Shown: positions 30,160 to 49,471, counted from the first letter of the stretch. The stretch: 64,000 bases of DNA from an uncultured Actinomycetota bacterium (GCA_963807005.1 CAWDZK010000005.1:124806-188805); one strand, 5' to 3'. Notes: generated by a model not told the origin, from the letters alone. Program-made: numbers and translations.

Positions 30160-30765
30160 ATGGCGTTGCGCATCCACGCCACCGCCGAGATAGACGACGG
30201 TGCCACGGTCGGGGACGGCAGCGCCGTGTGGCAGCTGGCGCACGTCCGCGCCGGGGCCGTGCTCGGCCGGAACGTGGTCGTCGGGCGGGGCGCCTACATC
30301 GGCCCGGACGTGTCCGTCGGGGACGGGAGCAAGATCCAGAACCACGCGATGGTCTACGAGCCGGCCCGTCTCGAGGCCGGCGTCTTCGTCGGTCCGGCCG
30401 TCGTCCTGACCAACGACGAGTACCCGCGGGCGGTGAACCCGGACGGCAGCCCGAAGTCTGCCTCCGACTGGGAGCCGGTCGGCGTCACGGTCCGCGAGGG
30501 CGCCTCGATCGGCGCCCGCAGCGTGTGCGTGGCACCGGTGACCATCGGGCGCTGGGCGCTGGTCGGTGCCGGCTCCGTCGTGGTGCACGACGTCCCCGAC
30601 TTCGCCCTCGTCGCCGGGGTCCCGGCCCGGCGACTGCGCTGGGTCGGCCGGGCCGGCGTCCCCCTCGAGGCCGAGGCCGGGTCCGGGACCACCTTCCGCT
30701 GCCCGCGCACCGGCGCGCGGTACGAACAGCTCGACGACAAGACCCTCGTGGAGGTCGACGCATGA
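30160..30765 (+). CDS. Hexapeptide-repeat N-acetyltransferase (WbpD/WlbB-like)
   Basis: Left-handed beta-helix repeats, 'SKIQNH', 'GPAVVLTND.YPR', 'VAGVPARR', C-terminal 'CPRTG'. Confidence 0.88.
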   Translation: MALRIHATAEIDDGATVGDGSAVWQLAHVRAGAVLGRNVVVGRGAYIGPDVSVGDGSKIQNHAMVYEPARLEAGVFVGPAVVLTNDEYPRAVNPDGSPKSASDWEPVGVTVREGASIGARSVCVAPVTIGRWALVGAGSVVVHDVPDFALVAGVPARRLRWVGRAGVPLEAEAGSGTTFRCPRTGARYEQLDDKTLVEVDA

Positions 30766-31847
30766 CCGCGCTCATCCCTGCTGCCCGCCCCCTGATCGGC
30801 GACGAGGAGCGCGAGGCCGTCGACCGTGTCCTGCGCTCCGGCATGGTCGCGCAGGGCCCGGAGGTCGCCGCGTTCGAAGACGAGTTCGCCGCCGTCGTCG
30901 GCGGCCGCCGTTGCGTCGCTGTGAACTCCGGCACCTCAGCCCTCCACCTGGCCTTCCTCGCCGGGGGGATCGGCCCGGGCGACGAGGTGATCGTCCCGTC
31001 GTTCACCTTTGCGGCGACCGCCAACTCGGTGGCGCTCACTGGGGCGACCCCGGTGTTCGCCGACATCGAGCCGGACCACTTCAACCTCGACCCGGACGCC
31101 GTCGCAGCAGCCATCACGCCGCGCACCCGGGCGATCATGCCGGTGCATCTCTATGGCCACCCGGCGGCGATGGACCGGTTCTCCGATCTTGCCGAGCAGC
31201 GGGACCTGCTGCTGTTCGAGGACGCGGCTCAGGCGCACGCCGCCAGCCTGCACGGCCGGCCGGTCGGGTCGTGGAGCCTCGCCGGCTCCTTCTCGTTCTA
31301 CCCGACGAAGAACATGACCTCCGGCGAGGGTGGCATGGTCACCACCGCCAGCGACGAGCTCGCCCGGACGGTGCAGCTGCTGCGCAACCAGGGGATGGAG
31401 AAGCGCTACGAGAACGAGGTCGTCGGCTTCAATGCCCGGATGACCGACCTGCACGCCGCGATCGGCCGGGTCCAGCTGCGCCAGCTCGCCGGCTGGACCA
31501 AGCAGCGCCAGGCCAACGCGGCCTTCCTCGACGAGAACCTCGACGGCGTCGTCGTTCCGCCGGTCGCTGACGGCGCCGTGCACGTCTACCACCAGTACAC
31601 GGTGCGGGTGCCCGGTCACGACAGGGACGCCTTCGCGGCCGAGCTGGCCGCGCGCGGCGTCGGCTCAGGCGTCTACTACCCGATCCCGAACCACCGGTTG
31701 CCCTCCTTCGGGCTGGCCCTCGACCTGCCCGAGACCGAGCGGGCCGCGCGCGAGGTGCTGTCCCTGCCGGTGCACCCGGCCCTCTCGGAGGCCGAGCTCG
31801 AGACCGTCGTCACTGTCGTCAACGCCGTCGCAGGGGCCGGCTCGTGA
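30762..31847 (+). CDS. DegT/DnrJ/EryC1/StrS aminotransferase (WbpE-like)
   Basis: 'VNSGTSAL', 'PVHLYG', 'EDAAQAH', 'SFYPTKNMTSGEGG'. Confidence 0.92.
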   Translation: MTALIPAARPLIGDEEREAVDRVLRSGMVAQGPEVAAFEDEFAAVVGGRRCVAVNSGTSALHLAFLAGGIGPGDEVIVPSFTFAATANSVALTGATPVFADIEPDHFNLDPDAVAAAITPRTRAIMPVHLYGHPAAMDRFSDLAEQRDLLLFEDAAQAHAASLHGRPVGSWSLAGSFSFYPTKNMTSGEGGMVTTASDELARTVQLLRNQGMEKRYENEVVGFNARMTDLHAAIGRVQLRQLAGWTKQRQANAAFLDENLDGVVVPPVADGAVHVYHQYTVRVPGHDRDAFAAELAARGVGSGVYYPIPNHRLPSFGLALDLPETERAAREVLSLPVHPALSEAELETVVTVVNAVAGAGS

Positions 31848-32830
31848 CGTTGCGCGCAGGCCTGCTGGGCCTGGGGATGATGGGGCGCAACCACGCACGG
31901 GTCCTCGCGTCGCTGCCCGGCGTGGACCTGGTCGCCGTCGCCGACGCCGCCGGTGACGTGCACCGCGCCGCCGCTGGGCGGCCGGTCCTCGCCACCGTCG
32001 AGGAGCTCATCTCCCAGGGCATCGACTACTGCATGGTCGCCGTACCTACCTACCTGCACGAGGAGGTCGGCCTGACGCTCGCCGCCGCCGGTGTCCACGC
32101 GCTGGTCGAGAAGCCCCTGACGCCGGACGTGGCCTCCTCGGAGCGGCTCGCGTCGGCGTTCGAGGACGCCGGACTGGTGGGGGCCGTGGGCCATATCGAG
32201 CGCTACAACCCGGCGCTGCAGGAGGCCCGGCGTCGGCTCGCCACGGGTGAGTTGGGCAGCCTGCACCAGATCATCACTCGTCGGCAGGGACCGTTCCCCG
32301 CGCGGATCGCCGACGTCGGCGTGGTCAAGGACCTGGCCACGCACGACATCGACCTGACCGCGTGGGTCACCCAGCAGCAGTTCACGTCGGTCTCGGCGCA
32401 GGTGGCGCACCGCAGCGGGCGCGAGCACGAGGACCTGGTCGCCATCGTCGGCCGGCTCGCGGACGGGACGGTCACCAGCCACCTGGTGAACTGGCTCTCC
32501 CCGTTCAAGGAGCGGATCACCGTCATCACAGGTGACCGCGGCGCCTTCGTCGCCGACACCCTCACCGCCGACCTCACTTTTCACGCCAACGGCACGATCG
32601 CCACCGAGTGGGAGTCGATCGCGAAGTTCCGTGGCGTCAGCGAGGGTGACATGATCCGCTACGCCATCGCCAAGCCGGAACCGCTGCGGTCGGAGCACGA
32701 GGCGTTCCGGGACGCCGTGCTCGGCAAGGAGGCCGACATCGTCACCATGCGACAGGGCCTGGCGACGGTCGCCGTGGCGGAGGCGGCTCTCCGGTCGGCC
32801 CGGACCGGATCCACCCAGAGCATCGGCTGA
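31844..32830 (+). CDS. Gfo/Idh/MocA oxidoreductase (WbpB-like sugar 3-dehydrogenase)
   Basis: 'GLGMMG', 'EKP', 'VGHIERYNPA', 'DVGVVKDLATHDID'. Confidence 0.9.
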   Translation: MTLRAGLLGLGMMGRNHARVLASLPGVDLVAVADAAGDVHRAAAGRPVLATVEELISQGIDYCMVAVPTYLHEEVGLTLAAAGVHALVEKPLTPDVASSERLASAFEDAGLVGAVGHIERYNPALQEARRRLATGELGSLHQIITRRQGPFPARIADVGVVKDLATHDIDLTAWVTQQQFTSVSAQVAHRSGREHEDLVAIVGRLADGTVTSHLVNWLSPFKERITVITGDRGAFVADTLTADLTFHANGTIATEWESIAKFRGVSEGDMIRYAIAKPEPLRSEHEAFRDAVLGKEADIVTMRQGLATVAVAEAALRSARTGSTQSIG

Positions 32831-32831: not shown

Positions 32832-34349
32832 GTGGACGACCCGCGGCCCGACGAGCCGCCGGAGGAGTTTGTCGACGACGTCGACGTCGTTCCCGGCTCA
32901 CCGAGCGAGCTCGGCCGCGCGGTCTCCCGCGACGTCGCGATCTACACGATCGGCACGGTCGTCGCGAACGGCATCCTTTACCTAGCGGTGCCGATCTACA
33001 CCCGCGTCTTCCCCCCTGTCGAGTACAGCAAGTTCGCCTTCGTGACGACGGTGAGCGGGATGCTTGCAGGCGTGCTCGTCCTCGGCGGCGACACGGCGCT
33101 GGCCCGGTTCTGGTTCAAGGACCCGGCACTGGCTGCGCGCCGCACGTTGTGCCTTACCTGGATCGGCTTCCTCGCAGCTTGGGCCGCGGTGTTCTGCCTC
33201 GCTCTGGCCCCCTTCACACCGGCTGTGGCTTCGTGGACGCTCGACCAGCGCAACGCCGCCTCGCTGTACCTGCTCGCACTCGCCACCCTCCCGATCGCGC
33301 AGACCAGCCGCATGCTCGCCCAGATTCTTCGCAACGAGTTCCGCCCCGTGCCGTTCGTTCTGACCGGTGTGGTCCTCGGCGCCGGCAGCCTAGGAGGAGG
33401 GCTGCTCTTCGCAGTGGGCCTGGACCTCGGGGTCGCGGGGATCTTCGTCGGCATCCTGTGTGCCGAGACCCTGGTACTGGGCCTGCGCACCGCCCTGACC
33501 TTCGACCTGTTCCGTGGGTCGTTCGACCGGGATCTGCTGCGAGGGCTGCTGCGCTTCGGCGTTCCTCTCGTGCCGGTCACGGTCAGCTTCTGGGTCTTCA
33601 CGGCCGCCGATCGGGTCGTGGTCGGAAAGGTCGCCGGGCTCGAACAGCTGGGGTACTACAGCGTGGCCGTGACGGTCACGATGGTCTTCGTCGTACTGAC
33701 GAGTGCGGTATCGCAGGCATGGCTGCCTCGCGCCATGCAGCTCTACGAGGCCGACCGCGAGAGAGCGGCCACGGTCATCGGCGCGTCGCTGACGTACTAC
33801 GTGTTCGTCCTGGGGGTGCTGGCCAGCGGCATCGCCGCTCTGGCGCCAGAGGTCACGGCAGTGCTCGCCGGACCCGAGTACGCGCCCGCCGCCGCGGCGA
33901 TCCCGCTGCTCTGCCTCGGCTCGGTCGCGTACGGTTCGCAGACGATCACTGCCAGCGGGATGACCATGACCCACCGGACCGGTCGGCTTGCCTCCATCTC
34001 CCTCGGCGCAGCGGCCGTCAACGTCGCCGCCGCACTGCTCCTGGTGCCTCCGTTCGGGATCGTCGGTGCGGCCGGAGCCAGCCTGGCCGGCTACGGCCTC
34101 CTGACCACGGGGTACCTCTGGGCCTCTCAGCGGTTCTGGGCGATCCACCTGCAGCCGCGCCGGCTAGCCGTCACCGTTGCACTGCTCGCCCTGGTCGGCC
34201 TGGTCACGACCACCCAGCGCGACCAGCCAGTGGGGCTACGGCTGCTCGTGCCGATCGCGTTCGTCGCGGGCTGGGTGCTCCTGGCCGGGGTGCACGCCGA
34301 CGAGCGGGACGCTCTACGCGCTGGGGCCCGGCTCCTCCGGCGCCGCTGA
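32832..34349 (+). CDS. wzx: Wzx-type polysaccharide flippase
   Basis: About 12 TM segments, 'VPIYTRVFPPVEYS', 'LRFGVPL', 'DRVVVG', 'LGYYSVA'. Confidence 0.85.
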   Translation: MDDPRPDEPPEEFVDDVDVVPGSPSELGRAVSRDVAIYTIGTVVANGILYLAVPIYTRVFPPVEYSKFAFVTTVSGMLAGVLVLGGDTALARFWFKDPALAARRTLCLTWIGFLAAWAAVFCLALAPFTPAVASWTLDQRNAASLYLLALATLPIAQTSRMLAQILRNEFRPVPFVLTGVVLGAGSLGGGLLFAVGLDLGVAGIFVGILCAETLVLGLRTALTFDLFRGSFDRDLLRGLLRFGVPLVPVTVSFWVFTAADRVVVGKVAGLEQLGYYSVAVTVTMVFVVLTSAVSQAWLPRAMQLYEADRERAATVIGASLTYYVFVLGVLASGIAALAPEVTAVLAGPEYAPAAAAIPLLCLGSVAYGSQTITASGMTMTHRTGRLASISLGAAAVNVAAALLLVPPFGIVGAAGASLAGYGLLTTGYLWASQRFWAIHLQPRRLAVTVALLALVGLVTTTQRDQPVGLRLLVPIAFVAGWVLLAGVHADERDALRAGARLLRRR

Positions 34350-34781
34350 ACTCTCGTCGGCCAGCCGGCGCGCGGCCCCGGGGAGGACCCGGGCCGGCAC
34401 CCCGGCGAGCACGCTCCATGGCGGAGCCTGAGTGCCCTGGGTGACCACGGCGCCGGCGGCAACCACCGAGTGGGATCCGATCCTGCAGCCCATGAGCACG
34501 ATCGCGCCGGCGCCGACATGGACGTGGTCGCCCAGAACCGTGGGGGCCTGATCGATGTCCGCCTGACCCTGGGCTAGGGCCCTCCGGACGGTGGAGTGGG
34601 TGTAGATCTGTGCTCCGGCGGAGATGTCGCAACCTGCTCCGATGGTGAGCCCGCCGCTGCCGTCGATAACCGTGAACGCACCGATCCAGCAGCCCGCCCC
34701 GACGTCGGGTTCGCCGACGACCCAGGCGTGCGGATTCCACCGATTGACCGGCAGGTGGTGCCACTCAGGCGGCTGCGTCAT
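34314..34781 (-). CDS. Hexapeptide-repeat acyltransferase
   Basis: 'DVGAGCWIGAFTVIDGSGGLTIGAGCDISAGAQIYTH', 'AGVPARV'. Overlaps the wzx 3' end by 36 nt. Confidence 0.82.
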   Translation of the reverse strand: MTQPPEWHHLPVNRWNPHAWVVGEPDVGAGCWIGAFTVIDGSGGLTIGAGCDISAGAQIYTHSTVRRALAQGQADIDQAPTVLGDHVHVGAGAIVLMGCRIGSHSVVAAGAVVTQGTQAPPWSVLAGVPARVLPGAARRLADESSAAPEEPGPSA

Positions 34782-34923: not shown

Positions 34924-35892
34924 ATGCACTCGGTGGCAGGGCGCTCGCTGCTCATCACGGGCGGTGCCGGTTTCATCGGCAGCCACCTCGTGGACCGGCT
35001 CCTGCGCGACGATCCAGCCCGCGTGGTCGTCGTCGACAACTTCTTCCTTGGCCACGAGAAGAACCTCGCCGACGCCCGAGCATCCCGACCGGACCTCGAG
35101 GTGGTGCGGCTCGACGCCGCTGATCTCGCCGCGATGCAGGATGTCGTCACGACCCACGAGGTCGACGTGGTCTTCGACCTGGCGGTCGTGCCGCTGCCGA
35201 CCTCGCTGACCTACCCGGCGTGGACGGTACAGACGAACGTCGGCATCGCGACCACCTTCTGCGAGATCGCCCGGCGGGGGCTGATCGACCGGCTCATCCA
35301 CTGCTCGTCGTCCGAGGCCTACGGCACTGCGCGGTACGTCCCAATGGACGAGGGGCACCCGCACGACGCCATCACCCCGTACGCGGCCAGCAAGTCGGCC
35401 GCGGACCACATCATCGAGTCGTACGTGCAGACCTTTGGCATCGACGCGACGATAGTGCGGCCGTTCAACAACTTCGGGCCCCGGCAGAACCCCGGCTCGT
35501 ACGCCGGGATCATCCCGATCGTCGCGCAGCGGGTTGCCGCTGGGCAACCTATCGAGATCCACGGGGACGGTCAGCAGACCCGGGACTTCATCTACGCCCC
35601 TGAGACGGCCGACATGATCGTGCGCGTCTTCGAGAGCGAGGCCTGCCGAGGCCGCGTCCTGAACGTCGCGTCCGGCATCGAGACCTCCGTCAACGACCTG
35701 GTCCGCCGACTGCTGCGCGTCCTGGGTGCCGATGAACACCCGGTCGTGCACACGGATGAGCGCCCCGGCGACGTGCGCCGGCACTGCGCGGACATCTCGC
35801 TGGCGCGCAAGCTGCTCGAGTACGAGCCGCGCGAGATCTCGGACCACGATCTCGCCGAGACCGTCCAGTGGTACGCGGAGATGCAGCGATGA
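34924..35892 (+). CDS. NAD-dependent nucleotide-sugar epimerase/dehydratase
   Basis: 'TGGAGFIGSHL', 'SSSEAYG', 'YAASK', 'RPFNNFGP', 'GDGQQTRDF'. Confidence 0.92.
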   Translation: MHSVAGRSLLITGGAGFIGSHLVDRLLRDDPARVVVVDNFFLGHEKNLADARASRPDLEVVRLDAADLAAMQDVVTTHEVDVVFDLAVVPLPTSLTYPAWTVQTNVGIATTFCEIARRGLIDRLIHCSSSEAYGTARYVPMDEGHPHDAITPYAASKSAADHIIESYVQTFGIDATIVRPFNNFGPRQNPGSYAGIIPIVAQRVAAGQPIEIHGDGQQTRDFIYAPETADMIVRVFESEACRGRVLNVASGIETSVNDLVRRLLRVLGADEHPVVHTDERPGDVRRHCADISLARKLLEYEPREISDHDLAETVQWYAEMQR

Positions 35893-36995
35893 GGCTCAAC
35901 CTTCCGCTTACCGGCCAGGAGGAGCTCGACGAGGTCGCAGCCGTCCTCGAGACCGGTTACCTCACCCAGGGCCCGAAGGCGGCGCAGTTCGAGTCGCTCG
36001 TGGCGGCCTACACAGGTGTCCGGCACGCGTTCGCGACCAGCTCGTGCACCACCGCCCTTCATCTCGCCGTCGTCGGGCTCGGTGTCGGTCCCGGTGACGA
36101 GGTCGTCGTCCCCGACTTCACGTTCCCGGCCACGGCGAACGTCGTCGTCCAGCAGGGTGCAACGCCGGTCGTCGTCGACATCGACCCGGACACGTTCGGC
36201 ATGGATCCGGCGGCGCTCGCCGCCGCCATCACGCCTCGCACCAAGGCCGTCATCGTCGTGCACGCATTCGGGCTGTGCGCTGACATGGACGGCATCAATG
36301 CAGTCGCCGATGCGGCCGGGGTACCGGTTGTCGAGGACGCCGCGTGCGCCCTCGGCGGCACCTACCACGGTCGTGCGGCTGGTTCGCTGTCGGCGGTCGG
36401 CGCCTTCTCGTTCCACCCGCGGAAGATCATCACCACCGGCGAGGGCGGGATGGTCATGACGGACGACGACGAGCTGGCCGAGCGGTTCGCAGTGCTGAGG
36501 ACCCACGGGGGCGTCCGTCGGGAGCTGTACCTCGAGTTCGAGGAGGCCGGTTTCAACTACCGCCTGAGCGACGTCAATGCCGCGATCGGAGTCGCCCAGA
36601 TGGCTCGGCTGTCCGAGCTGGTTCGGCGGCGGCGCGAACTCGCTGGACGCTTGACCGAGATGCTGCAGGGCTCGCCGGGGCTCCGGACGCCGTCCGAGCC
36701 CGAGGGCGTCGAGCACACCTACCAGTCCTACGTGGTGATGCTCGACGACGCGATCGACCGCGACGCGGTCATCCGTGGCACGCGTGACCGGGACGTGGAG
36801 ACCACGCTGGGCACCTACTCGCTCAGCGCCCAGCCGTACTTCCAGCGCACCCTTGACCTGCGCGAGGGCACCTGCAAGAACGGCAGCCGCGCCTTCCGCC
36901 AGTCGCTCACCCTCCCGCTCTACCCTCAGTTGACCGACGCGGACCTCGAGCAGGTCGTCGAGGCCGTCGGCAGGGCTGTCGCGGCAGTGTCCTGA
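35889..36995 (+). CDS. Second DegT/DnrJ/EryC1/StrS aminotransferase
   Basis: 'SSCTTALH', 'EDAACA', 'SFHPRKIITTGEGG', 'GFNYRLSD'. ATGA overlap with the epimerase gene. Confidence 0.92.
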   Translation: MRLNLPLTGQEELDEVAAVLETGYLTQGPKAAQFESLVAAYTGVRHAFATSSCTTALHLAVVGLGVGPGDEVVVPDFTFPATANVVVQQGATPVVVDIDPDTFGMDPAALAAAITPRTKAVIVVHAFGLCADMDGINAVADAAGVPVVEDAACALGGTYHGRAAGSLSAVGAFSFHPRKIITTGEGGMVMTDDDELAERFAVLRTHGGVRRELYLEFEEAGFNYRLSDVNAAIGVAQMARLSELVRRRRELAGRLTEMLQGSPGLRTPSEPEGVEHTYQSYVVMLDDAIDRDAVIRGTRDRDVETTLGTYSLSAQPYFQRTLDLREGTCKNGSRAFRQSLTLPLYPQLTDADLEQVVEAVGRAVAAVS

Positions 36996-37008: not shown

Positions 37009-37638
37009 ATGAGCAGCACGCCAGAGGTCGTGGTCGTGGACTACGGCATGGGCAACGTCGGGTCGATCCGCAACATGCTGTCGCGGCTCGGCGCCGTCGG
37101 CGTCGTCACCGGCGATCCTGATGTCGTTGCCCGCGCCGACCGGGTGATCCTGCCCGGCGTCGGCGCGTTCGACGAGGCGATGTCCACCCTTCGCGCGGCT
37201 GGCCTCGACGAAGCGCTGCTCCAGCGCTCGGCAGCAGGCGACGCGCCGTTGCTCGGTGTCTGCCTCGGGATGCAGCTGCTGCTGGAGGGAAGCGAGGAGG
37301 GCGACGAGAAGGGTCTCGGACTCGTCCCGGGCACCTGCCGACGGCTCCCGGACAGCGTCGACGGGCTGGCGCTGCGCGTTCCCCACATGGGGTGGAGCAC
37401 GGTGGAGCCGGTCCGCACGTCGCCGCACGTCCCGTCACTCGGCCTCGACGCCCGCTACTACTTCGTGCACTCCTACCACGCCGACCCGGCCGTCGACGAG
37501 GACGTGCTCGGCCGTTCGACCTACGGCGTCACGTTCACGTCCGCCGTCGCGCGCGACAACGTGGTCGGCGTCCAGTTCCACCCCGAGAAGAGCCACCGGC
37601 ACGGCCTGCGCCTGCTCGCCGACTTCGTCGGGGTCTGA
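37009..37638 (+). CDS. hisH: HisH-type glutamine amidotransferase (glycan-associated, WbuY/HisH2-like), copy 1
   Basis: 'VVDYGMGN', 'ILPGVG', catalytic 'GVCLGMQ', 'PHMGW', 'YFVHSY', 'QFHPEKS'. Confidence 0.9.
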   Translation: MSSTPEVVVVDYGMGNVGSIRNMLSRLGAVGVVTGDPDVVARADRVILPGVGAFDEAMSTLRAAGLDEALLQRSAAGDAPLLGVCLGMQLLLEGSEEGDEKGLGLVPGTCRRLPDSVDGLALRVPHMGWSTVEPVRTSPHVPSLGLDARYYFVHSYHADPAVDEDVLGRSTYGVTFTSAVARDNVVGVQFHPEKSHRHGLRLLADFVGV

Positions 37639-37646
37639 GAGGCACC

Positions 37647-39614
37647 GTGAACGTCTACCCCCGGATCATCCCTGCCCTGCTGCTTGACAACGGTCGTCTG
37701 GTCAAGACCCGTCAGTTCCAGGACTCCGTGTACGTCGGCGACCCGGTCAACGTGCTGAGCATCTTCAACGACTTCGAGGTCGACGAGATCGCGCTGCTCG
37801 ACATCGGGGGTGCTCGTTCGCGGACACCGACTGCGGTCTCACTGCTGCACCGGCTCTCGACCGAGTGCTTCGTGCCGCTTTCGTACGGGGGCGGGATCCA
37901 GACCGCCGAGCAGGCGCGCGAGATCATCACCTGCGGCTTCGAGAAGGTCGTGCTGAACTCCTTGCTACTCGAGGACCCTGCCGAGGTCGGTCGCATCGTC
38001 ACCACGCTGGGTTCGCAGGCGGTCGTCGGCGCCCTCGACGTCCGTCGGGACGGCGACACCCTGCGGGTCTTCGGCCGGGGCGGCGCCAGCGGCGCCGAGC
38101 TGACCGTCGAGGAGTGGGCAGAGCGCGCGCGTGCGGTCGGGGTCGGGGAGGTCCTGGTCACCTCGATCGATCGCGAGGGCACGCGTGAGGGCCTCGACCT
38201 CGAGCTGGTCAAGCTGGTCACCTCGCTGGTCAACGTCCCCGTCGTGGCCCACGGCGGGGCCGGAACCCGCGCCGACCTGGTCGCCCCGGTTCGGGACGCG
38301 GGAGCGTCTGCGGTCGCCGCCGGCAGCCAGTTCGTGTTCCAGGGCGGTCGAGAGAGCGTGCTCGTCAACTATCCGTCGCGCGCCGAGATCGGTCTCATGT
38401 TCCGCGACGTCACGCACCTGTCCGGTGGCGACGGCCATACCAGGGTCGCCGGCCCGGTGCACCTCGCCGGGCTCGACATCGTCCTCGACGAGTCCCGCAC
38501 CTGTCAGCGATGCCTGATCACCACCGACGTCCCCAACGCCACGCTGGACGAGCGCGGCATCTGCTATTACTGCCGCCTGCATGACGCGATGGAGCGGCAG
38601 TACCCCATCGGCGAACAGGGCCGGCGACAGCTCGACGCGCTCGCCGCGAAGTTCAAGGAGGCCGGACGCGGCAAGAAGTACGACTGCATCCTGGGGGTCA
38701 GCGGCGGCTGCGACTCGTCCTACCTCGTCCATCTGCTGGTCGAGCTCGGCGTCCGCCCGCTAGCGGTGCACTTCGACAACACCTGGAACTCGCCGACCGC
38801 GACGTCGAACATCTACACGGTCCTGGAGCAGCTCGGCGTCGACCTCGAGACCTACGTCGTCGACAACACCGAGTACGACGACATCTACCGGTCGTTCATG
38901 CTCGCTGGCGTCAAGGACGTCGAGGCACCGACGGACATCGGCTTCATGGGCGTGCTGTACCGGTCTGCCGAGAAGCACGGCATCAAGCACATCGTCGAAG
39001 GCCACTCGTTCCGCACCGAGGGTGTGTCGCCCTTGGGCTGGCTCTACATGGACGGCGGGTACATCAAGGGCGTGCACGAGCGCTACGGCAGCGTCCCCAT
39101 GCGGACCTACCCGAACATGGAGTTCGGGCAGTTCGTGCGCTGGGCGGCCCTGAGCCGGATCGAGCGGCACCGCCCCTTGTACTTCCTGGACTACCAGAAG
39201 GAAGAGGTGAAGCGCTTCCTCGCGGAGACCTACGGCTGGCAGTGGTACGGCGGCCACCACCTCGAGAATCGGTTCACGGCCTTCTACCACACGTACCTCC
39301 TGCCGACCCGGTTCGGCATCGACTTCCGGCAGATCGAGCTCTCCGCATTGGTCCGCTCCGGCCAGCTCGAGCGCGGTGAGGCCGCTGCCCGCCTCGCGGA
39401 GCGGCGGATCCCGGACCCTGAACAGCTCGCCATGGTGAAGAAGCGGCTGCGCTTCTCCGACGCCGAGTTCGACGAAGTCATGACCATGCCGGCCCGGACC
39501 TACCGCGACTTCCCCACCTACAAGCAGCGGTTCGAACGGCTTCGTCCGTTCTTCTGGCTCATGTACAAGGCAGGGCGCGTGCCGAAGAGCTTCTACGTCA
39601 AGTTCTGCACGTGA
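37647..39614 (+). CDS. Fusion: HisF2/WbuZ-like barrel plus N-acetyl-sugar amidotransferase (WbuX/WbpG/PseA-like)
   Basis: N-half 'RIIPALLL', 'PLSYGGGI', 'SIDREGT..GLD', 'VLVNYPS'. In-frame ~30-aa linker with no stop. C-half 'CQRC...CYYC', PP-loop 'SGGCDSS', 'HHLENRFT'. Confidence 0.88.
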   Translation: MNVYPRIIPALLLDNGRLVKTRQFQDSVYVGDPVNVLSIFNDFEVDEIALLDIGGARSRTPTAVSLLHRLSTECFVPLSYGGGIQTAEQAREIITCGFEKVVLNSLLLEDPAEVGRIVTTLGSQAVVGALDVRRDGDTLRVFGRGGASGAELTVEEWAERARAVGVGEVLVTSIDREGTREGLDLELVKLVTSLVNVPVVAHGGAGTRADLVAPVRDAGASAVAAGSQFVFQGGRESVLVNYPSRAEIGLMFRDVTHLSGGDGHTRVAGPVHLAGLDIVLDESRTCQRCLITTDVPNATLDERGICYYCRLHDAMERQYPIGEQGRRQLDALAAKFKEAGRGKKYDCILGVSGGCDSSYLVHLLVELGVRPLAVHFDNTWNSPTATSNIYTVLEQLGVDLETYVVDNTEYDDIYRSFMLAGVKDVEAPTDIGFMGVLYRSAEKHGIKHIVEGHSFRTEGVSPLGWLYMDGGYIKGVHERYGSVPMRTYPNMEFGQFVRWAALSRIERHRPLYFLDYQKEEVKRFLAETYGWQWYGGHHLENRFTAFYHTYLLPTRFGIDFRQIELSALVRSGQLERGEAAARLAERRIPDPEQLAMVKKRLRFSDAEFDEVMTMPARTYRDFPTYKQRFERLRPFFWLMYKAGRVPKSFYVKFCT

Positions 39615-40942
39615 GGCGAGCCCGTCCGGTACGGCGGGTGCTCGTCCTTCCCCAGGAGATCGCAGGCGTCGCGTCCGGGCTGGTGCGCGGCATCCGCGCG
39701 TCCGGCCTCGAGGCCGACCTGCTCGTGCGCGGGCGCCATCCCTTCGGCTACCCGCGGCCTGCGCCGGGTACGCCGGTACTTGGGCGTCTGCAGTCGTTGT
39801 TGACCCGGCTCTCCGGTGCCCGTGGGCCGGTTCGACCGATGGCTCTGGCCATGTCGCTCGTCCTGCGGGTCGCATTGCTGCCCTGGCTGCTGAGGCGCTA
39901 CGACGCGCTGGTCTACCTCGGGCCGACCACGCTGACCGGGCTGGCTGGCGAACGGCGGCTGGCCAAGCGACTCGGCCTTGTCGTCGTCACGGTGTTCCTC
40001 GGCAGCGACGCGAGGCCGCCGTACCTCAGCGGCTACGTGATCCGGCCGGGGCAGGGCGAGCCGGACCTTGCCGACATCCGGCGTCAGGTGCGCGCCACCG
40101 TGCGCCGGGTCCGGGCGGCCGAGACCGGCTCCACCTGGGTGGTCAACCACCCACCGACCGCAGGGTTCCTTCGCCGTCTTTACGTCGACTTCTCCACCAT
40201 GGGCCTGCCGGCTCCGGAGACCGGTGCTCCGCGCACCACCGGTGCTGACGCGGCCGTGGGGCCATTCGACCGCACCGTACGCGTGGTGCACGCACCGTCG
40301 ATGGCGCCGTGGAAGGGCACTGACCAGATCCGAGCGGCCGTCAACCGCCTGCGCGACGAGGGTCTGCGGATCGACTACGTCGAGCTGGTGGGAGTCCCCC
40401 ACGACCAGGTGGTGGCGACGCTTGCCGGTGCCGACCTCGTCGTCGACGAGCTCTACTCCGACGCGATCCTGGCCGGCCTCGCGACCGAGGCGGCCGCGCT
40501 GGGGGCCACCCCGCTGGTCTTCGGCTACGCCGGTGCAGCCCTCGCGAGCACCGCCGAGTCGCTCGGGGTCGGGTTGCGCCACTACCACCCACCGGAGCAG
40601 CTGCTCGACATCCTTCGTGACTTCGTCAGCGACGCTGACCTACGCATCTCGACCGGCTCCGCCGTGCACGACTTCGTGGTCCGCGAATGGTCCGCCGCTG
40701 CGGTAGGAGCCCGGTACGCCCGGCTGCTGACCGAGGGGCCGGACCCTTCCTGGCTGCGCGACCCGGCCGCAGCCGACTATGTGGACGGGTGGGGCGTCGA
40801 ACGGGAGGAGCGACGGACATTTCTGCGGCGGTTCCTCGCCGCCGGCGACCCAGCAGATCTCGGACTGCCCGACGGCAGCGCGCTGCGTGAGGCCCTGCTC
40901 CTCGAGGCCGGCGACGGCCTCCGTCGTGGCTCACCCCGATAG
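39611..40942 (+). CDS. GT-B fold glycosyltransferase-like protein
   Basis: 'VVHAPS...KGT..I', 'ADLVVDELYSD', 'EAAALG'. GTGA-coupled to the fusion gene. Confidence 0.7.
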   Translation: MRRARPVRRVLVLPQEIAGVASGLVRGIRASGLEADLLVRGRHPFGYPRPAPGTPVLGRLQSLLTRLSGARGPVRPMALAMSLVLRVALLPWLLRRYDALVYLGPTTLTGLAGERRLAKRLGLVVVTVFLGSDARPPYLSGYVIRPGQGEPDLADIRRQVRATVRRVRAAETGSTWVVNHPPTAGFLRRLYVDFSTMGLPAPETGAPRTTGADAAVGPFDRTVRVVHAPSMAPWKGTDQIRAAVNRLRDEGLRIDYVELVGVPHDQVVATLAGADLVVDELYSDAILAGLATEAAALGATPLVFGYAGAALASTAESLGVGLRHYHPPEQLLDILRDFVSDADLRISTGSAVHDFVVREWSAAAVGARYARLLTEGPDPSWLRDPAAADYVDGWGVEREERRTFLRRFLAAGDPADLGLPDGSALREALLLEAGDGLRRGSPR

Positions 40943-42097
40943 GGTCTGCTCCCACAACCGCCACAGCACTGCGCTCTCGTTCTCCCAGCACAGCTCGAGT
41001 CGAGCCCTCGCAGCAGCGGCTCGCATCGCGCGCAGGTCCGTTCCGTCGAGCTCGCGCAGTGTCGTGGCCAGCGCAGCCGGGGTGGCCGGGGCATAGCCGA
41101 CTCCCGCTCCATAGCCCTCGATCAGCCGAGACGCCTCCGACGGGGCGGTCGCCACCACCGCAAGTCCTGCCATGAGGTACTCGAAGAGCTTGTTCGGCAG
41201 GCTGATGCGCTTCTGGGGAAGGTCCAGGCCCCAGGGGATCACCCCGAGGTCCGCGGCAGCCGCCGACGGGATCACCTCGGACCAGGTGACGGGCGGAGAC
41301 AGCTCGACCCGGTCGCCGACACCGAGATCGTCGACCTGCTGTCTCAGCGACCGAAGGTAGCCGGGCGAGCCCCCGCCGCGGAGCTCGAGGCGGATGTGGT
41401 CCGGCCACAGCGGGACGCTCTCGACCAGCCCGTGCACATTGCGGTCCGGGCGCAGATGGCCGTGGAACAACGCCGTCCACCTGTCGCCCGGGACATGTTC
41501 AGGCAGCTCCACCAGCAAGGGAGTCGAGCGGACCACGGTCGGCCGGCTGCTCAGGCTGTACGAACGAGCGAGCAGGTCGGCCAGACCGTCGCTGACGGTG
41601 GTGACCCAGGCGGCGTCATGGACGAAGTAGCCCTCGACCGCCCGTACCGCCGGCGGGGCGACGAGCTGCCACACCGCGCTGTCCGCGTGCTGGCCGGCGT
41701 AGAACTCGCGGCAGTCATAGGCGTAGCGGGCCGAGTGTCGCCGGGCGGCGGCAGCGACCATGGGCAGGGCGGCATAGTCGTGCGTGACGTATACGTCGGC
41801 CTCGACGTCGGAGAGGGCAACGGCGATCGCCCGGTGCCGGGCGGCCATCTGGTGCGTGCGCCGGGCCAGCCGCGGCGACACCCGGGCAGTGGCCAGTCGG
41901 CCGACCTCGGCTGCCTTGCCGGCGACCGTGAACGTCGGCGCGGGGACCGCTACATAGCGCCATGGGTGCTCTGCGCCTCCGGCGCCGCTGTACCCGACCA
42001 CGGTGACGTCCACCCCGTGCGAGGCGAGCAGGTCGGCCTGCCGACGCGGCCGCGGGTCGGTCGGCACATGGCTGAGGGCGACGACGCAAACCTTCAG
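40931..42097 (-). CDS. GT4-like glycosyltransferase, probable CTG start
   Basis: '(L)KVCVVALSH..DPR..RQA', 'YDCREFY', 'NKLFEYLMAGLAVV'. AGGAGG 5 nt before a CTG that overlaps the upstream TGA. Confidence 0.82.
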   Translation of the reverse strand: MKVCVVALSHVPTDPRPRRQADLLASHGVDVTVVGYSGAGGAEHPWRYVAVPAPTFTVAGKAAEVGRLATARVSPRLARRTHQMAARHRAIAVALSDVEADVYVTHDYAALPMVAAAARRHSARYAYDCREFYAGQHADSAVWQLVAPPAVRAVEGYFVHDAAWVTTVSDGLADLLARSYSLSSRPTVVRSTPLLVELPEHVPGDRWTALFHGHLRPDRNVHGLVESVPLWPDHIRLELRGGGSPGYLRSLRQQVDDLGVGDRVELSPPVTWSEVIPSAAAADLGVIPWGLDLPQKRISLPNKLFEYLMAGLAVVATAPSEASRLIEGYGAGVGYAPATPAALATTLRELDGTDLRAMRAAAARARLELCWENESAVLWRLWEQTLSG

Positions 42098-43209
42098 GAC
42101 GCCCTCCTGCCTCGGACGAGCCGGGCAGCGCGGGTCATCCAGGTGTAGTCGTTGGGATACGTCGCGAAGGGCACGTGCGGTAGGGCCACCAGCTCGGCCA
42201 GCTCCTCGAGGGAGATACCGAGCTTGCGGGCGACGAATGCCGTTTCGATCCGTTCTCTGCGGGCGTCCAGCGGCGGGCGACGCAGCTCCTCCAGTGCCTC
42301 CTCCCGGGTGACCTGCCCGGCAACGATCTGGCTGGACAGATGTGCGCGACGCTTGTCGAAGCCGTACCGGCGGGGCAGGTACACGCCTTGGAAGTACTTC
42401 GTCCAGCGCGACTCCTCGTGCTTGCCGCCGTAGTCGCGCCAGCCGTACGTCTCGATCAGCAGCTCTCGGGCAGCTGCCTTGTCGTAGGGAACCCAGTTGA
42501 GCGGGGTCACCTTGCGCATCCGCTCGGCCAGCAGGTGCCGCCCGTAGTAGCCGGGGTAGCGCAGCACCGGGAACTCGTCCAGCGGTCGCTGCCCGAAACG
42601 CGCGTGGATCGCCCGCACCTGACGACCGTCCATGGCGTTGCCGGTCCAGGACGCAGGGAGGATGCTCTCGGTCGCGAAGTTCCAGCCGCTGAGCACGTAC
42701 CGGATGCGGTTCTCGCGGGCTGTCCGGTACAGGGCGGCGAAGAACGCGTGGTCCTGCGGGGTGTCCTGGTTCAGCACGCCGGAGCGCAGGTAGGCCACCT
42801 GCACGTCCTGCACCTCGGGCCACGGTACGACGATCGTCACCAGGTCGACGTCCAGCGCCGTCGTCATCCGGTAGATGTTGCTTGTCGCCTCGTTGCTGTT
42901 CCAACCGGCGTCGACGTGCACCACGAGCGGTCGCAAACCGGCCGAGGCGGCGACGTGCAAGAGGTAGGAGCTGTCGACACCGCCGCTCATGCCGAGGATG
43001 CAGTCGTAGGGCCGACCCGCACCGTACGCGCGAAGTCGGGCTGCGGTCTCGGCGAGCCGGCCCTCGCCCTCCGGGCCGCACAGCCAGGTCCCCGGCATCT
43101 CGGCGATGGCCCGAGTGCAGTGCTGGCAGCGGCCCTCGCCGTCGAAGGTGATCTCCGGGTCCGTCGTGTCGATCACGCACCGGGTGCAGATCCGGTAGTC
43201 GTTGCTCAC
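42094..43209 (-). CDS. N-acetyl-sugar amidotransferase (WbuX/WbpG-like), copy 2
   Basis: 'CTRC...CQHC', PP-loop 'SGGVDSS', 'DAGWNS', 'PQDHAFFA', 'YGGKHEES'. Confidence 0.92.
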   Translation of the reverse strand: MSNDYRICTRCVIDTTDPEITFDGEGRCQHCTRAIAEMPGTWLCGPEGEGRLAETAARLRAYGAGRPYDCILGMSGGVDSSYLLHVAASAGLRPLVVHVDAGWNSNEATSNIYRMTTALDVDLVTIVVPWPEVQDVQVAYLRSGVLNQDTPQDHAFFAALYRTARENRIRYVLSGWNFATESILPASWTGNAMDGRQVRAIHARFGQRPLDEFPVLRYPGYYGRHLLAERMRKVTPLNWVPYDKAAARELLIETYGWRDYGGKHEESRWTKYFQGVYLPRRYGFDKRRAHLSSQIVAGQVTREEALEELRRPPLDARRERIETAFVARKLGISLEELAELVALPHVPFATYPNDYTWMTRAARLVRGRRAS

Positions 43210-43940
43210 GGCAGCACCGCCTCGAGCTCCTCGTCGTCGGGATAGCTCACGAGAACCGCGCGCCGGCGGCCGTGGAACACGAAGATGCTGCCCGCGGCCA
43301 CCGCACTGGCCCCGGCCACCTGCGCCGCGGTGAGGTCGGCCAGTGCGCCGGCGCCGCCGAGCGCCACGACGGGCACCGGACAGCTGGCCGAGACCAGCGT
43401 CACCGACGCGGTGTCGTAGCCGCGCATGGACCCGTCCCGGTCGACGCTCTGCAGCAGCACCTCGCCGGCACCGGCATCGACCGCCCGGGCAACGGCGTCG
43501 ACCAGGGTGGCCCGTTCCGGGCCGACCGTTCTGGCGTCGGATCCGGAGCCGGTGTAGTCGATGCAGGCACAGACGGCCTGCGAGCCGTACTCCGAAGCCA
43601 CCCGCGTGACGAGGCGCGGGCTGTCGGTGAGTGCCTGACGAAGCACCACCTTTTCCATGCCGAGGTCGAAGATCGCCGCGCAGTCGTCTGGGGTCCGGAG
43701 CCCACCGCCGTACGACACCGGCATGAAGCACTCGGACGCCAGCTCGGCCAGGAAGCCGAGGTCTGGCCGGGCCGAGCCTGGGTCGATGGACAGGATCGCC
43801 AGCTCATCAGCACCCTTCTCGCTGAAGAGCCGCACGGTGTTCAGTGGATCACCGACATACGTGGGATCCCGGAACGCCGTCGTCTTGACCAGGTCTCGAC
43901 CGCGGAGCAGGAGCGCCGGGATCACGCGGGTGCGCCTCAC
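43206..43940 (-). CDS. HisF2/WbuZ-like barrel protein, copy 2
   Basis: 'RVIPALLL' (HisF catalytic Asp absent), 'GDPLNTV', 'SYGGG', 'SVDRDGSMRGYD', 'VLVSYP'. Confidence 0.9.
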   Translation of the reverse strand: MRRTRVIPALLLRGRDLVKTTAFRDPTYVGDPLNTVRLFSEKGADELAILSIDPGSARPDLGFLAELASECFMPVSYGGGLRTPDDCAAIFDLGMEKVVLRQALTDSPRLVTRVASEYGSQAVCACIDYTGSGSDARTVGPERATLVDAVARAVDAGAGEVLLQSVDRDGSMRGYDTASVTLVSASCPVPVVALGGAGALADLTAAQVAGASAVAAGSIFVFHGRRRAVLVSYPDDEELEAVLP

Positions 43941-44566
43941 GCGGGCAGCTCGAGGAAGTCGGCAAGCAGTGCCATGCCGAAGCGGTGGCTCTTCTCCGGG
44001 TGGAACTGGACGCCGTAGACGTTTCCCGATGTCACCGCCGCGGTGAACCGCTCACCGCCGTACTCGCCGTGCGCGACAGCGGACGAGGCGTCCGCCGTCA
44101 TCGCGAAACTGTGTGCAAAGTAGTAGCGGCTGCGCTGGTCGGCATCATGGCTGGCCAGGATCGGCGACCCCGCCGCCGTCTGGATGTTCGCCCAGCCCAC
44201 GTGCGGGACCTTGTGGGTCGGAGCCGGTCGCAAGCGCCGCACCTCGGCGTCCACCCAACCGAGGCCGGGTAGATCGCCTTCCTCGCTGCCTCGCCCGAGC
44301 AGCTGGTGGCCCACGCAGACGCCGAGGAACGGCACGTGCCGCTCATGCGCGGCCGTGGTCAGTGCCGGGACGAGGTCGAGCTCGTCGAGGCGGCGTCGGC
44401 AGTGGTCGAAGTGCCCGACTCCGGGCAGGATCACCTTGGTGGCGGAGGCCACCTCGGCGCTGTCGGCCGTCCGCAGGGCCGTGTATCCGAGGTACTCGAT
44501 CATGGTGACCATCGAGGCCGGGTTGCCGGCGCCGTAGTCGACGACGACGACGTCGGGACGGGACAC
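43937..44566 (-). CDS. hisH: HisH-type glutamine amidotransferase, copy 2
   Basis: 'VVDYGAGN', 'ILPGVG', 'GVCVGHQ', 'PHVGW', 'YFAHS', 'QFHPEKS'. Confidence 0.9.
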   Translation of the reverse strand: MSRPDVVVVDYGAGNPASMVTMIEYLGYTALRTADSAEVASATKVILPGVGHFDHCRRRLDELDLVPALTTAAHERHVPFLGVCVGHQLLGRGSEEGDLPGLGWVDAEVRRLRPAPTHKVPHVGWANIQTAAGSPILASHDADQRSRYYFAHSFAMTADASSAVAHGEYGGERFTAAVTSGNVYGVQFHPEKSHRFGMALLADFLELPA

Positions 44567-46928: not shown

Positions 46929-48218
46929 GTGAAGATCGCCGTCGTCGCCCTCGGGAAGATCGGCCTCCCACTCGCGGTGCACTTCGCAGCGGGCGGCCAC
47001 GACGTGGTCGGCGCCGACGCGAACTCCGCCGTGGTCGACCTGGTCAACGAGGGCCAGGAGCCGTTCCCGGGAGAGCACGGGCTGCAGGAGGCGCTGACCG
47101 CGGCCGTCGGTGAAGGTCGTCTCCGCGCGACCACCGACACCGCTGCTGCGGTCAGTGAGTCCGAGGCGGTCGTTGTCGTGGTGCCTCTGGTCGTCGACGC
47201 GGAGGGCCAGCCCGACTTCACGCTGATGGACTCGGCCACCCGGGACATCTCCCGTGGGCTGCAGCGAGGCACGCTGGTGTCGTACGAGACGACGTTGCCG
47301 GTCGGCACGACGCGCGACCGGCTCGCGCCCACTCTCGCCGAGGGGTCGGGGCTCGAGCCCGGCCGCGACTTCCACCTCGTCTTCAGCCCCGAGCGGGTGC
47401 TGACCGGCCGGGTTTTCGCCGACCTACGCCGCTATCCGAAGCTCGTCGGCGGCGTCGACGACGAGAGCGGTAAGCGTGGCGTGACGTTCTACGAGACGGT
47501 GCTCGACTTCGACGACCGGTCGGACCTGTCGCGGCCCAACGGCGTCTGGGACCTTGGCACCGCGGAGGCGGCCGAGCTGGCGAAGCTCGCGGAAACCACC
47601 TTTCGCGACGTGAACATCGGGCTCGCCAACCAGTTCGCCCGTTTCGCCGAGAAGGCCGGCGTCGACGTCTACCAGGTGATCGAGGCCTGCAACTCGCAGC
47701 CGTACAGCCACATCCACCCACCGGGTGTGGCCGTCGGCGGGCACTGCATCCCGGTGTACCCGCGCCTGTACTTGTGCAACGATCCCGAGGCCACCATCGT
47801 GCAGGCCGCCCGTGAGGCCAACGCCGCGATGCCGGAGCACGCGGTCGACCTGCTCGCAGACGCCTACGGAGATCTCGCCGGCGCTCGGGTCGTCGTGCTC
47901 GGAGCCACCTACCGCGGCGCCGTCAAGGAGACCGCGTTCTCGGGCGTCTTCCCGCTGGTGACGGACCTGCGCGACCGGGGAGCCGTACCGGTCGTGCACG
48001 ACCCGATGCTTTCCGACGAGGAGCTAGCGGCTCTCGGCCTGGACGCCTACCACCTCGGCGACTCGGTGGACGCGGCGATCCTGCACACCGACCACGCGGA
48101 CTACCGGACTCTCTCGGCCCACGAGCTGCCCGGCGTGCGCGTGCTTGTCGACGGCCGGCGGGTGACCGACCCAGCGCGGTGGACCGGGGTTCACCGACGG
48201 GTCATCGGTCAGGCCTGA
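46929..48218 (+). CDS. Nucleotide-sugar 6-dehydrogenase (WbpA/WecC-like)
   Basis: 'LGKIGLP', 'FSPERV', 'KLAETTFRDVNIG', catalytic 'GGHCIP'. Confidence 0.92.
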   Translation: MKIAVVALGKIGLPLAVHFAAGGHDVVGADANSAVVDLVNEGQEPFPGEHGLQEALTAAVGEGRLRATTDTAAAVSESEAVVVVVPLVVDAEGQPDFTLMDSATRDISRGLQRGTLVSYETTLPVGTTRDRLAPTLAEGSGLEPGRDFHLVFSPERVLTGRVFADLRRYPKLVGGVDDESGKRGVTFYETVLDFDDRSDLSRPNGVWDLGTAEAAELAKLAETTFRDVNIGLANQFARFAEKAGVDVYQVIEACNSQPYSHIHPPGVAVGGHCIPVYPRLYLCNDPEATIVQAAREANAAMPEHAVDLLADAYGDLAGARVVVLGATYRGAVKETAFSGVFPLVTDLRDRGAVPVVHDPMLSDEELAALGLDAYHLGDSVDAAILHTDHADYRTLSAHELPGVRVLVDGRRVTDPARWTGVHRRVIGQA

Positions 48219-48592
48219 TCCTCGCGCGGGTCAGTCTCGCGACCGGGAGTCGGGGCAGACCGCATCTCGTGGCCCGCCTCGTCGAGGGCCAGCTGCCGAG
48301 CCAGCACCGTGAGCTGGCGCTCCACGTCCCGGAACCTCAGGTAGAAGCCGACAACCACGTACAGGAAGACGGCCGTCAGCAGGTACAGCAGCAGGTCGGT
48401 ACCACGCCCCACACCCACGACATTGGCCGCCCTCTGGGTCAGCTCCGGGCGCAGGATCGATGCCACCGCGACGGCGGTCAGCGCGATGAGGATGAGCTTC
48501 TTCCAGGCCCGGGTTCGGGCCGACGTACGGCTGCGCAGCAGCACGACGAGCAGGCCGAGGGCGGCGACGATGAGGAAGATCTGAATGAGCAC
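48209..48592 (-). CDS. DUF2304 family small membrane protein (GacJ/WpsB-like)
   Basis: Three TM segments, 'VGVGRGTDLLLY', C-terminal 'ERQLTVLARQLAL'. Confidence 0.88.
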   Translation of the reverse strand: MLIQIFLIVAALGLLVVLLRSRTSARTRAWKKLILIALTAVAVASILRPELTQRAANVVGVGRGTDLLLYLLTAVFLYVVVGFYLRFRDVERQLTVLARQLALDEAGHEMRSAPTPGRETDPREDQA

Positions 48593-48594
48593 GG

Positions 48595-49275
48595 CTACCT
48601 GAAGATGATGTCGAAGATGATGTTGATGGCATTGAGAAGCGGCTGACCCTTGCCGCGCGAGTAGTCGGTGTAGCGGATGTGCACTGGCACCTCGGCGTAG
48701 CGGAACCGCTCCCTGGCGACGATCGCGAGCAGCTCGGAGGCGTGGGCCATTCCGTTCATCGTCAGGTCCAGCGACTCCGCGACCTCGCGGGTGAACGCCC
48801 GCAGGCCGTTGTGCGTGTCGCTGACGCTGAGACCGGTGCTCACCCGCGTGTAGCGGACGGCGGCGTTGAGGACGGCGCGCTTGGCAACGCCGAGCTGGGT
48901 GCGGGTGTCGAGGAAGCGGGACCCGAAAACGATCTGGGCGTCGCCACGGTCGAGGATCTTCAGCATCTGGTCGACATCGTCGATGTCGTGCTGCCCATCG
49001 GCGTCGAACGTCACGAAGTAGCAGGCGCTGGTGAATCGCAGACCGTACTCGATGCCCGTGCGCAGCGCCGCGCCCTGCCCGAGGTTGAACGGGTGCCGTA
49101 CCAGCACGGCGCCCGTGCCTTCCAGTTCCTCCGCGGACCGGTCGCTGCTCGCGTCGTCGATGCAGACGACGTTGGTGTACCGCTCGAGGACGCTCCCGAC
49201 CACCTCCCGGACGACGGGGGCCTCGTTGTAGACGGGGATGACGATGCACACGTCGTCACCCGGTCTCCCCGCCAC
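48595..49275 (-). CDS. GT2 polyprenol-phosphate glycosyltransferase (DPM1/GacI/WpsA-like)
   Basis: 'IPVYNE', 'DDASSD', 'NLGQGAALRTG', 'FDADGQH', 'GSRF', 'DTHNGLRAF'. RBS AAGGAG. Confidence 0.9.
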   Translation of the reverse strand: MAGRPGDDVCIVIPVYNEAPVVREVVGSVLERYTNVVCIDDASSDRSAEELEGTGAVLVRHPFNLGQGAALRTGIEYGLRFTSACYFVTFDADGQHDIDDVDQMLKILDRGDAQIVFGSRFLDTRTQLGVAKRAVLNAAVRYTRVSTGLSVSDTHNGLRAFTREVAESLDLTMNGMAHASELLAIVARERFRYAEVPVHIRYTDYSRGKGQPLLNAINIIFDIIFR

Positions 49276-49471
49276 CCAGCATCTCCTTCGCCCATGCGGA
49301 GTCGTCGCGCTCTACGCCTCGGTCGCGGTCGCCGGTCAGGCTACACCGCTGGCCGGGTAAGGTCGTCCGGGCCGCTCGCGCGGCTGAGGCGGTCCCACCG
49401 CCTCCTGCTGCGCGTGGGCCACCCGCCCGCAGCGATGCGCCCGAGACACCCGAGAGAAGCCACCGTCACCC

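Follow-up and report, generated by a model that had tools for sequence, protein, structure and literature searches.

Two convergent gene sets predicted to amidinate N-acetyl sugars in one glycan locus of an uncultured actinobacterium

Why should a single glycan locus carry two full sets of genes for a glutamine-dependent N-acetyl sugar amidotransferase (NASAT), and do the two sets act on the same sugar? The question is raised by a 64,000-nucleotide stretch of DNA, hereafter the window, from an uncultured member of the Actinomycetota (GCA_963807005.1, CAWDZK010000005.1:124806-188805), in which seven genes between positions 37009 and 44566 form two convergent operons. Judging from the protein families to which their products belong and from the gene neighbourhood, we consider it probable that these operons specify two functional, paralogous NASAT systems of the WbpG/HisH2/HisF2, WbuXYZ or AglXYZ kind, and that the two act on different N-acetyl groups. 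The surroundings are those of a Wzx-type cell-wall glycan locus in an uncultured high-GC soil actinobacterium (GC content of the window approximately 72%), and the window matches a 397-kb contig from an ENA metagenome assembly. The system itself is known; its host and its arrangement are new.

Module 1 lies on the plus strand and comprises HisH1, a class-I glutaminase subunit of the WbuY/AglY/HisH2 type (37009-37638), a HisF1::WbuX1 fusion protein of 655 amino acids encoded by a single open reading frame (37647-39614), and a 443 amino acid protein (39611-40942) whose start overlaps the stop codon of the fusion gene. Module 2, on the minus strand, is made up of a second glutaminase subunit, HisH2 (43937-44566), the WbuZ/AglZ-type barrel HisF2 (43206-43940), predicted to be a cyclase-dead ammonia conduit, the stand-alone NASAT WbuX2 (42094-43209) and a glycosyltransferase of family GT4 (GT4b; 40931-42097). 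The 3' ends of the two operons overlap by 12 nucleotides, including both stop codons (40931-40942), and similar convergent overlaps, of 6 and 27 nucleotides, are present in two related contigs. No further copies of HisH, HisF or WbuX were found elsewhere in the 64 kb window. A first-pass annotation of this DNA had described two complete modules converging at about 40.9 kb, each with a dedicated glutaminase retaining the Cys/His/Glu triad and with its own coupled glycosyltransferase. The gene layout, the family scores and, for the transferase of module 1, a structural model bear out this gene list, the transferases included; the word complete holds for the two amidination sets, but module 1 is only the downstream half of a six-gene cassette which begins at about 34314.

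Both glutaminase subunits possess the triad and score above the cutoff of the HisH model TIGR01855 (218.5 bits for HisH1 and 188.7 for HisH2; cutoff 105.4). For both barrels the best match is NF038364, the AglZ/HisF2 model, with 277 bits (1e-82) for the fused and 266 bits (2e-79) for the free barrel, while against the genuine hisF model they reach 160 and 129 bits versus a cutoff of 295. Alignment to HisF-LUCA places a Leu at the position of the catalytic Asp11 in both. The missing catalytic Asp had been pointed out in the first-pass annotation, and correctly so for Asp11; the Asp130 equivalent is kept, however, as are the ammonia-gate residues R5/E46/K99/E167, and the loss is shared by all relatives compared. 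Among 63 HisF-like genes lying next to NASAT genes in the loci fetched, none specifies Asp at this position (59 Leu, 2 Gln, 1 Met and 1 Thr). Across 63-66 relatives beside NASAT genes no variation is seen in the gate residues, the Asp130 equivalent or the HisH triad. The missing Asp11 is thus a hallmark of the whole WbuZ-type family and not a peculiarity of this locus, and its replacement by Leu suggests that the barrel serves as a conduit or scaffold rather than as a cyclase.

NASATs are defined by a PP-loop (SGGxDS) and a tetracysteine zinc site (CxxC-Xn-[GN]xCxxC) (PMC10607449). WbuX1 carries SGGCDS and CQRC...GICYYC, and WbuX2 carries SGGVDS and CTRC...GRCQHC. Both exceed the TIGR03573 (WbuX) cutoff of 203.2 bits, the WbuX1 domain with 230.1 (4.7e-68 for the fusion) and WbuX2 with 240.5. 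Catalytic motifs are intact in all six catalytic units and the family scores agree, those of the two barrels lying below the cutoffs of their best models. Within the fusion, a WbuZ/AglZ-type barrel (approximately 37647-38390) is followed by the C-terminal NASAT domain (approximately 38487-39614). Its AlphaFold2 (AF2) model has a mean predicted local distance difference test score (pLDDT) of 85 and a predicted template modelling score (pTM) of 0.69, with a poorly predicted or disordered linker at residues 234-268. The N-terminal domain matches HisF structures with Foldseek TM-scores of about 0.8, the top 50 matches all being HisF, and in a sequence search of the PDB with the fusion the top 60 matches were all HisF or HisA.

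This fusion is common in Actinobacteria. The best 120 homologues are all full-length fusions of 638-671 amino acids with at least 61% identity; their sources are many metagenomes together with Agromyces, Microbacterium, Demequina and Kineosporiaceae, and in RefSeq some are already labelled 'N-acetyl sugar amidotransferase'. More than 120 clusters of such fusions were recovered; we found no paper discussing the HisF::WbuX fusion. The amidotransferase motifs quoted in the first-pass annotation (FDNTWNS and DVEAPTDIG against VDAGWNS and QDTPQDHA) are present and prove to be clade signatures: HFDNTWN occurs in 120 of 120 fusions and HVDAGWN in 107 of 120 stand-alone proteins, and KD[IV]EAPTDIG in the fusions stands where the stand-alone proteins have a near-invariant NQDxPQDH. 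For WbuX2, two or three metagenome contigs provide orthologues of 77-81% identity; after these, no relative exceeds 58%.

Each module closes with a glycosyltransferase, and the two transferases differ and are unrelated. That of module 2 is recognized by three Pfam models, namely Glyco_trans_1_4 (43.1 bits, cutoff 27), Glycos_transf_1 (35.2, cutoff 26.4) and Glyco_trans_4_4 (34.4, cutoff 29.7), and GT4b-like homologues of 29-34% identity adjoin NASAT genes in loci L013, L016, L020 and L025. Two start codons are available to it. The GTG at 42067, at which the gene was called, would drop the first beta-strand (KVCVVAL); the CTG at 42097 has an AGGAGG 7-13 nucleotides upstream and overlaps the TGA of WbuX2 (CTGA), an arrangement that points to translational coupling with WbuX2 from a non-canonical start. 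The gene therefore probably begins at 42097.

The 443 amino acid protein of module 1 has no Pfam match, and its sole NCBIfam match scores 20 bits against a cutoff of 400. Its AF2 model, built on 28 homologues, has a pLDDT of 92 and a pTM of 0.92, and the top Foldseek matches are all GT-B enzymes of family GT4 (MshA, BshA, PimA and WaaG; probability 1.0). The model thus supports its assignment as a predicted GT-B glycosyltransferase from a family lacking a Pfam model. An initial homology search had returned 34 matches, as if the family were tiny; an exhaustive profile search rules this out, since it finds 1408 cluster representatives even at E<=1e-30, a number that rises to 4315 when the threshold is relaxed to E<=1e-10. 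Residues invariant in the family include H227, P229, K235, G236, D275, D279, D284 and E293.

The ammonia channelling that we propose follows the established chemistry of class-I amidotransferases and PP-loop enzymes. HisH would hydrolyse glutamine, and the ammonia released would pass through the cyclase-dead HisF-like barrel to the PP-loop/Zn(Cys4) NASAT domain. This domain would use ATP, with release of AMP and PPi, to activate the carbonyl in an N-acetyl group of a sugar, and NH would replace the carbonyl oxygen to leave an acetamidino group, the NASAT mechanism being as proposed in PMC10607449.

In order to see how unusual two such sets are, metagenome contigs were scanned with profiles; 80 loci were obtained, of which 33 unrelated ones of at least 12 kb were counted. 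Two NASAT paralogues are present in 7 of the 33. Six of these seven have a single HisH/HisF pair, and one alone (L009) has two full sets. Two NASATs per locus are therefore ordinary, and two complete three-component sets are uncommon (about 1 in 33) without being unique. The fusion and the loss of Asp are family-wide traits, and the possession of two complete sets in one locus is the sole uncommon feature here. In L009 the two HisH/HisF/NASAT sets lie at 1891-11131, and one of its NASATs is very divergent, being 24% identical to WbuX2. The convergent two-module layout recurs gene for gene in two metagenome contigs from the Joint Genome Institute (JGI), with fusion and WbuX2 orthologues approximately 80% identical to those of the window; it was found in none of the four loci that a scan of GTDB genome contigs with WbuX2 as query returned.

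The module 1 and module 2 paralogues are 46% (HisH), 45% (HisF) and 37% (WbuX) identical. In an internal neighbour-joining tree of the WbuX domains of the window with fused and stand-alone relatives, the domains from fusions form a long-stemmed clade of their own, while WbuX2 and three orthologues fall among the stand-alone proteins, where their neighbours are those of L008, L004 (a Mycobacteriales metagenome-assembled genome) and P0129. The view, already taken in the first-pass annotation, that the modules are not a recent duplication is upheld by the 37-46% identity and the separate clades. Recent horizontal arrival of module 2 is likewise ruled out by its host-like GC content at third codon positions (GC3; 0.85-0.91 in both modules) and by its actinobacterial nearest relatives. 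On these sequence comparisons the two modules are an old pair which diverged anciently.

What, then, would each module amidinate? Module 1 belongs to a conserved cassette in which a divergently transcribed hexapeptide-repeat acetyltransferase (34314-34781, minus strand; Pfam Hexapep and NCBIfam sugar/serine acetyltransferase families) is followed on the plus strand by a short-chain dehydrogenase/reductase (SDR) of the epimerase/dehydratase family (34924-35892; motifs SSSE...YAASK), a DegT-family sugar aminotransferase resembling PseC, ArnB and LegC by NCBIfam and PDB matches (35889-36995), HisH, the HisF::WbuX fusion and the GT-B protein. The best NCBIfam models for the SDR are dTDP-glucose 4,6-dehydratase and LegB, both below cutoff, and its best PDB matches are 6WJB and 6WJ9. 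Literature on PDB entries 9BGP and 8VR2-5, which are matched by the aminotransferase and the SDR of module 1, yielded nothing relevant. Orthologues elsewhere are 69-72% (SDR), 62-64% (DegT) and 65-70% (acetyltransferase) identical to those of the window; SDR orthologues occur in L002, L089, L090 and L008, and in all four the acetyltransferase orthologue adjoins the SDR. In Agromyces bauzanensis, Microbacterium sp. zg.B48 and Demequina sp. TTPB684 genes for the SDR, DegT and HisH precede the fusion, the hexapeptide acetyltransferase is divergent, and a GT-B-like gene follows the fusion, that of Agromyces coding for a remote homologue of the 443 amino acid protein (hhalign 99.6%). Module 2 is absent within 10 kb of the cassette in these three genomes. 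The cassette would thus proceed from a 4-keto sugar made by the SDR through a 4-amino to a 4-acetamido sugar; the fused enzyme would amidinate the latter and the GT-B enzyme would transfer it. From its gene neighbourhood, module 1 most likely amidinates the acetamido sugar made by its own cassette.

There are no sugar-synthesis genes within module 2. On the plus strand, at 30160-32830, lie three genes resembling wbpD/wlbB, wbpE and wbpB/gnnA, whose products are predicted to oxidize and aminate C3 of a UDP-HexNAc and to N-acetylate it. The Gfo/Idh/MocA oxidoreductase of this trio has UDP-GlcNAc 3-dehydrogenase as its best models and matches PDB 7BVJ, a second DegT protein is identified by NCBIfam, and the acetyltransferase, with a left-handed beta-helix (LbH), matches PDB 3MQG (E 9e-41). 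A nucleotide-sugar 6-dehydrogenase which would form a uronic acid is encoded at 46929-48218 on the plus strand (TIGR03026; 303 bits, cutoff 190). Together these four genes are the gene set for a 2,3-diacetamido-2,3-dideoxy (uronic) sugar, and a 2,3-diacetamido uronic sugar is the substrate context of WbpG in Pseudomonas aeruginosa O5 (PMC10607449). In L036 homologues of the trio and the 6-dehydrogenase (52-56% identical) are located directly upstream of an unfused HisF-WbuX-HisH set, and several other loci likewise pair unfused NASAT sets with WbpD/E/B/dehydrogenase-like genes. Based upon this neighbourhood module 2 most likely acts on a different N-acetyl group from module 1, and the 2,3-diacetamido (uronic) sugar is the best candidate for its substrate. 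In a Mycobacteriales metagenome-assembled genome (L004, 324-2704) a WbuX2-like NASAT (56% identity) directly follows a sugar 6-dehydrogenase (71%); no HisH or HisF is encoded in the 10 kb downstream, and upstream the contig breaks off.

Several observations weigh against the reading of two functional systems with different targets. Both barrels fall under the curated cutoffs of the models that describe them best (310 for NF038364 and 299.7 for TIGR03572), and the sequence of the window was matched only in soil and freshwater-sediment DNA metagenome runs. The trio of wbpB/E/D-like genes is also present in Agromyces, which has the fused module only, from which it follows that the trio does not require an enzyme of the module 2 type. 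In the actinobacterial locus L008 (1630-7816), SDR, DegT and Hexapep orthologues (72, 62 and 69% identical, and as close to those of the window as are the Agromyces genes) share one operon with an unfused HisH-HisF-WbuX set; the WbuX of this set has 58% identity with WbuX2 but only 36% with WbuX1. The operon has the look of a module 1 cassette in its unfused state. The pairing implies that the NASAT subfamily does not dictate the substrate, that either subfamily can serve the module 1 sugar pathway, and that module 2 could act on the same sugar as module 1. Taken to its end, the argument would make the two modules redundant, or one in the course of displacing the other, both amidinating the same N-acetyl group of the SDR-aminotransferase-acetyltransferase product; that module 2 brings no sugar-synthesis genes of its own agrees with this. 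We regard such redundancy as unlikely, although it is the rival we take most seriously. Both modules are intact in every motif in three contigs which have diverged to about 80% protein identity; had the copies been redundant, one would expect decay. Each module is, moreover, coupled to a different, unrelated glycosyltransferase, and the locus contains a second pathway, for a di-N-acetylated sugar, of the type classically associated with NASATs.

The other explanations are less attractive. NAD and GMP synthetases, which are PP-loop amidotransferases, adenylate oxygen centres other than N-acetyl carbonyls, and by the same chemistry one module might convert the carboxylate of a uronic acid to a carboxamide (uronamide); the 6-dehydrogenase in the locus and the altered motifs of the fusion clade (KD[IV]EAPTDIG for NQDxPQDH) would fit. 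We judge this quite improbable, given that both WbuX proteins exceed the TIGR03573 cutoff, that in glycan loci uronamides are usually credited to asparagine synthase-type enzymes (one of which is encoded near the fusion in Demequina), and that every characterised member of the family has been linked to acetamidino formation (PMC10607449). It is very improbable that one module is an inactive or unexpressed relic. The 12-nucleotide convergent overlap could allow transcription from the two sides to interfere, and no terminator-like element was seen between the stops in a promoter and terminator scan that is uninformative in DNA of 70% GC; however, all reading frames are intact, no triad, gate residue, PP-loop or Cys4 site is missing, GC3 is typical of coding sequence and synteny is kept in relatives. 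Hardly credible is the idea that the HisH/HisF pairs are ordinary histidine-biosynthesis genes. Both HisH proteins do pass the TIGR01855 equivalog cutoff, but their partners lack Asp11, fall far under the hisF cutoff in favour of the AglZ/HisF2 model, and in one case are fused to a NASAT, and both pairs lie in operons with NASAT and glycosyltransferase genes.

We therefore return to two functional systems with different targets, from which it is plausible, as the first-pass annotation had inferred, that two different products are made. As to why there are two glutaminases, we infer that, with the module 1 barrel joined in cis to WbuX1, WbuX2 would need a barrel and a glutaminase of its own; this would account for the two full sets here, where most loci with two NASATs share one pair. 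The AF2 model of the fusion, which gives no reliable inter-domain geometry, counts against this part of the argument. A stronger version, in which the modules, one hard-wired by its fusion and the other free-standing, are insulated and non-interchangeable and place two different acetamidino groups, and hence two cationic amidinium sites per repeat, in a cell-wall glycopolymer, we advance tentatively, at less than even chances. In that version the fused subfamily, whose conserved motifs are altered, might also act on a 4-acetamido sugar new to the NASATs.

Beyond the 6-dehydrogenase gene, the region 48209-51688 encodes a PpgS-like GT2 protein (polyprenyl-phospho-GalNAc synthase; 269 bits, below cutoff), a small DUF2304 membrane protein, and a multi-pass membrane protein of 738 amino acids with no Pfam match. 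This trio resembles the combination of a lipid-carrier-sugar donor with an extracytoplasmic transferase, and the GT2 and DUF2304 pair is also found in the Agromyces locus and in the related contigs. A second glycan system, of the ATP-binding cassette (ABC) transporter type, adjoins at 51751-63490; its genes specify a Wzt with a C-terminal domain, an ABC-2 permease, several GT2 proteins, a methyltransferase-GT2 fusion, a GT4 protein and RmlD. On the other side a very long open reading frame of 1713 amino acids (13127-18265, plus strand) has a GC3 of 0.93.

Acetamidino groups make neutral or acidic surface sugars cationic, altering charge, antigenicity, and recognition by phages or lectins. NASAT enzymology is thin, with one crystal structure, and we found no published reconstituted reaction. 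The fused HisF::WbuX offers biochemical and structural work a naturally tethered pair of ammonia channel and synthetase, and a locus in which both forms of the system occur together lends itself to use as a natural experiment on subunit specificity. No current view is overturned by these findings.

With the HisH/HisF of imidazole glycerol phosphate synthase the window proteins share the glutaminase triad, the (beta/alpha)8 barrel and the ammonia-gate residues; the cyclase Asp11 is present in that enzyme, whereas the window barrels have Leu instead. Further likenesses are WbuX/WbuY/WbuZ of Escherichia coli O145 (L-FucNAm) and AglX/AglY/AglZ of Methanococcus maripaludis (ManNAc3NAmA in the archaellin N-glycan), which have the same three-gene architecture and after which the NCBIfam models best matched by the window proteins are named. 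Work by Jones and colleagues in 2012 reportedly concerns, by its title, AglXYZ in acetamidino formation. The role of both WbuXYZ and AglXYZ in this reaction has been stated, WbpG making ManNAc3NAmA and WbuX making FucNAm (PMC10607449).

The B-band locus of P. aeruginosa O5 resembles the window in that a NASAT, WbpG, is accompanied by dedicated HisH/HisF paralogues (HisH2/HisF2) and in that 2,3-diacetamido uronic acids are also made. It differs in having one set of three separate proteins, whereas the window has two sets, one of them fused, in a cell-wall locus of Gram-positive type. An interaction of HisF2 with WbpG was predicted and then confirmed by co-immunoprecipitation in P. aeruginosa, and the authors take this contact to support ammonia delivery by HisH2/HisF2 (PMC11445079). 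By analogy, the actinobacterial fusion can be seen as a covalent version of that contact.

LpNASAT of Legionella pneumophila (PDB 8WEX) shares the PP-loop and the zinc-binding tetracysteine motif with the NASATs of the window but is very distant from them, being 468 amino acids long with an extra fragment; WbuX2 aligns with it weakly, over the N-terminal 80 or so residues (E 4e-5). The Campylobacter island we take to contain a single hisH/hisF pair, whereas in the window each NASAT has a pair of its own. Precedents for two or more paralogues per organism or glycosylation island are PseA and PtmG (Cj1324) of Campylobacter jejuni and the NASATs of Vibrio vulnificus (PMC10607449; PMC13130089), three Vibrio and two Campylobacter paralogues having been aligned (PMC10607449). 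In these cases the multiple NASATs of one organism or island make different amidinated sugars (PMC10607449; PMC13130089).

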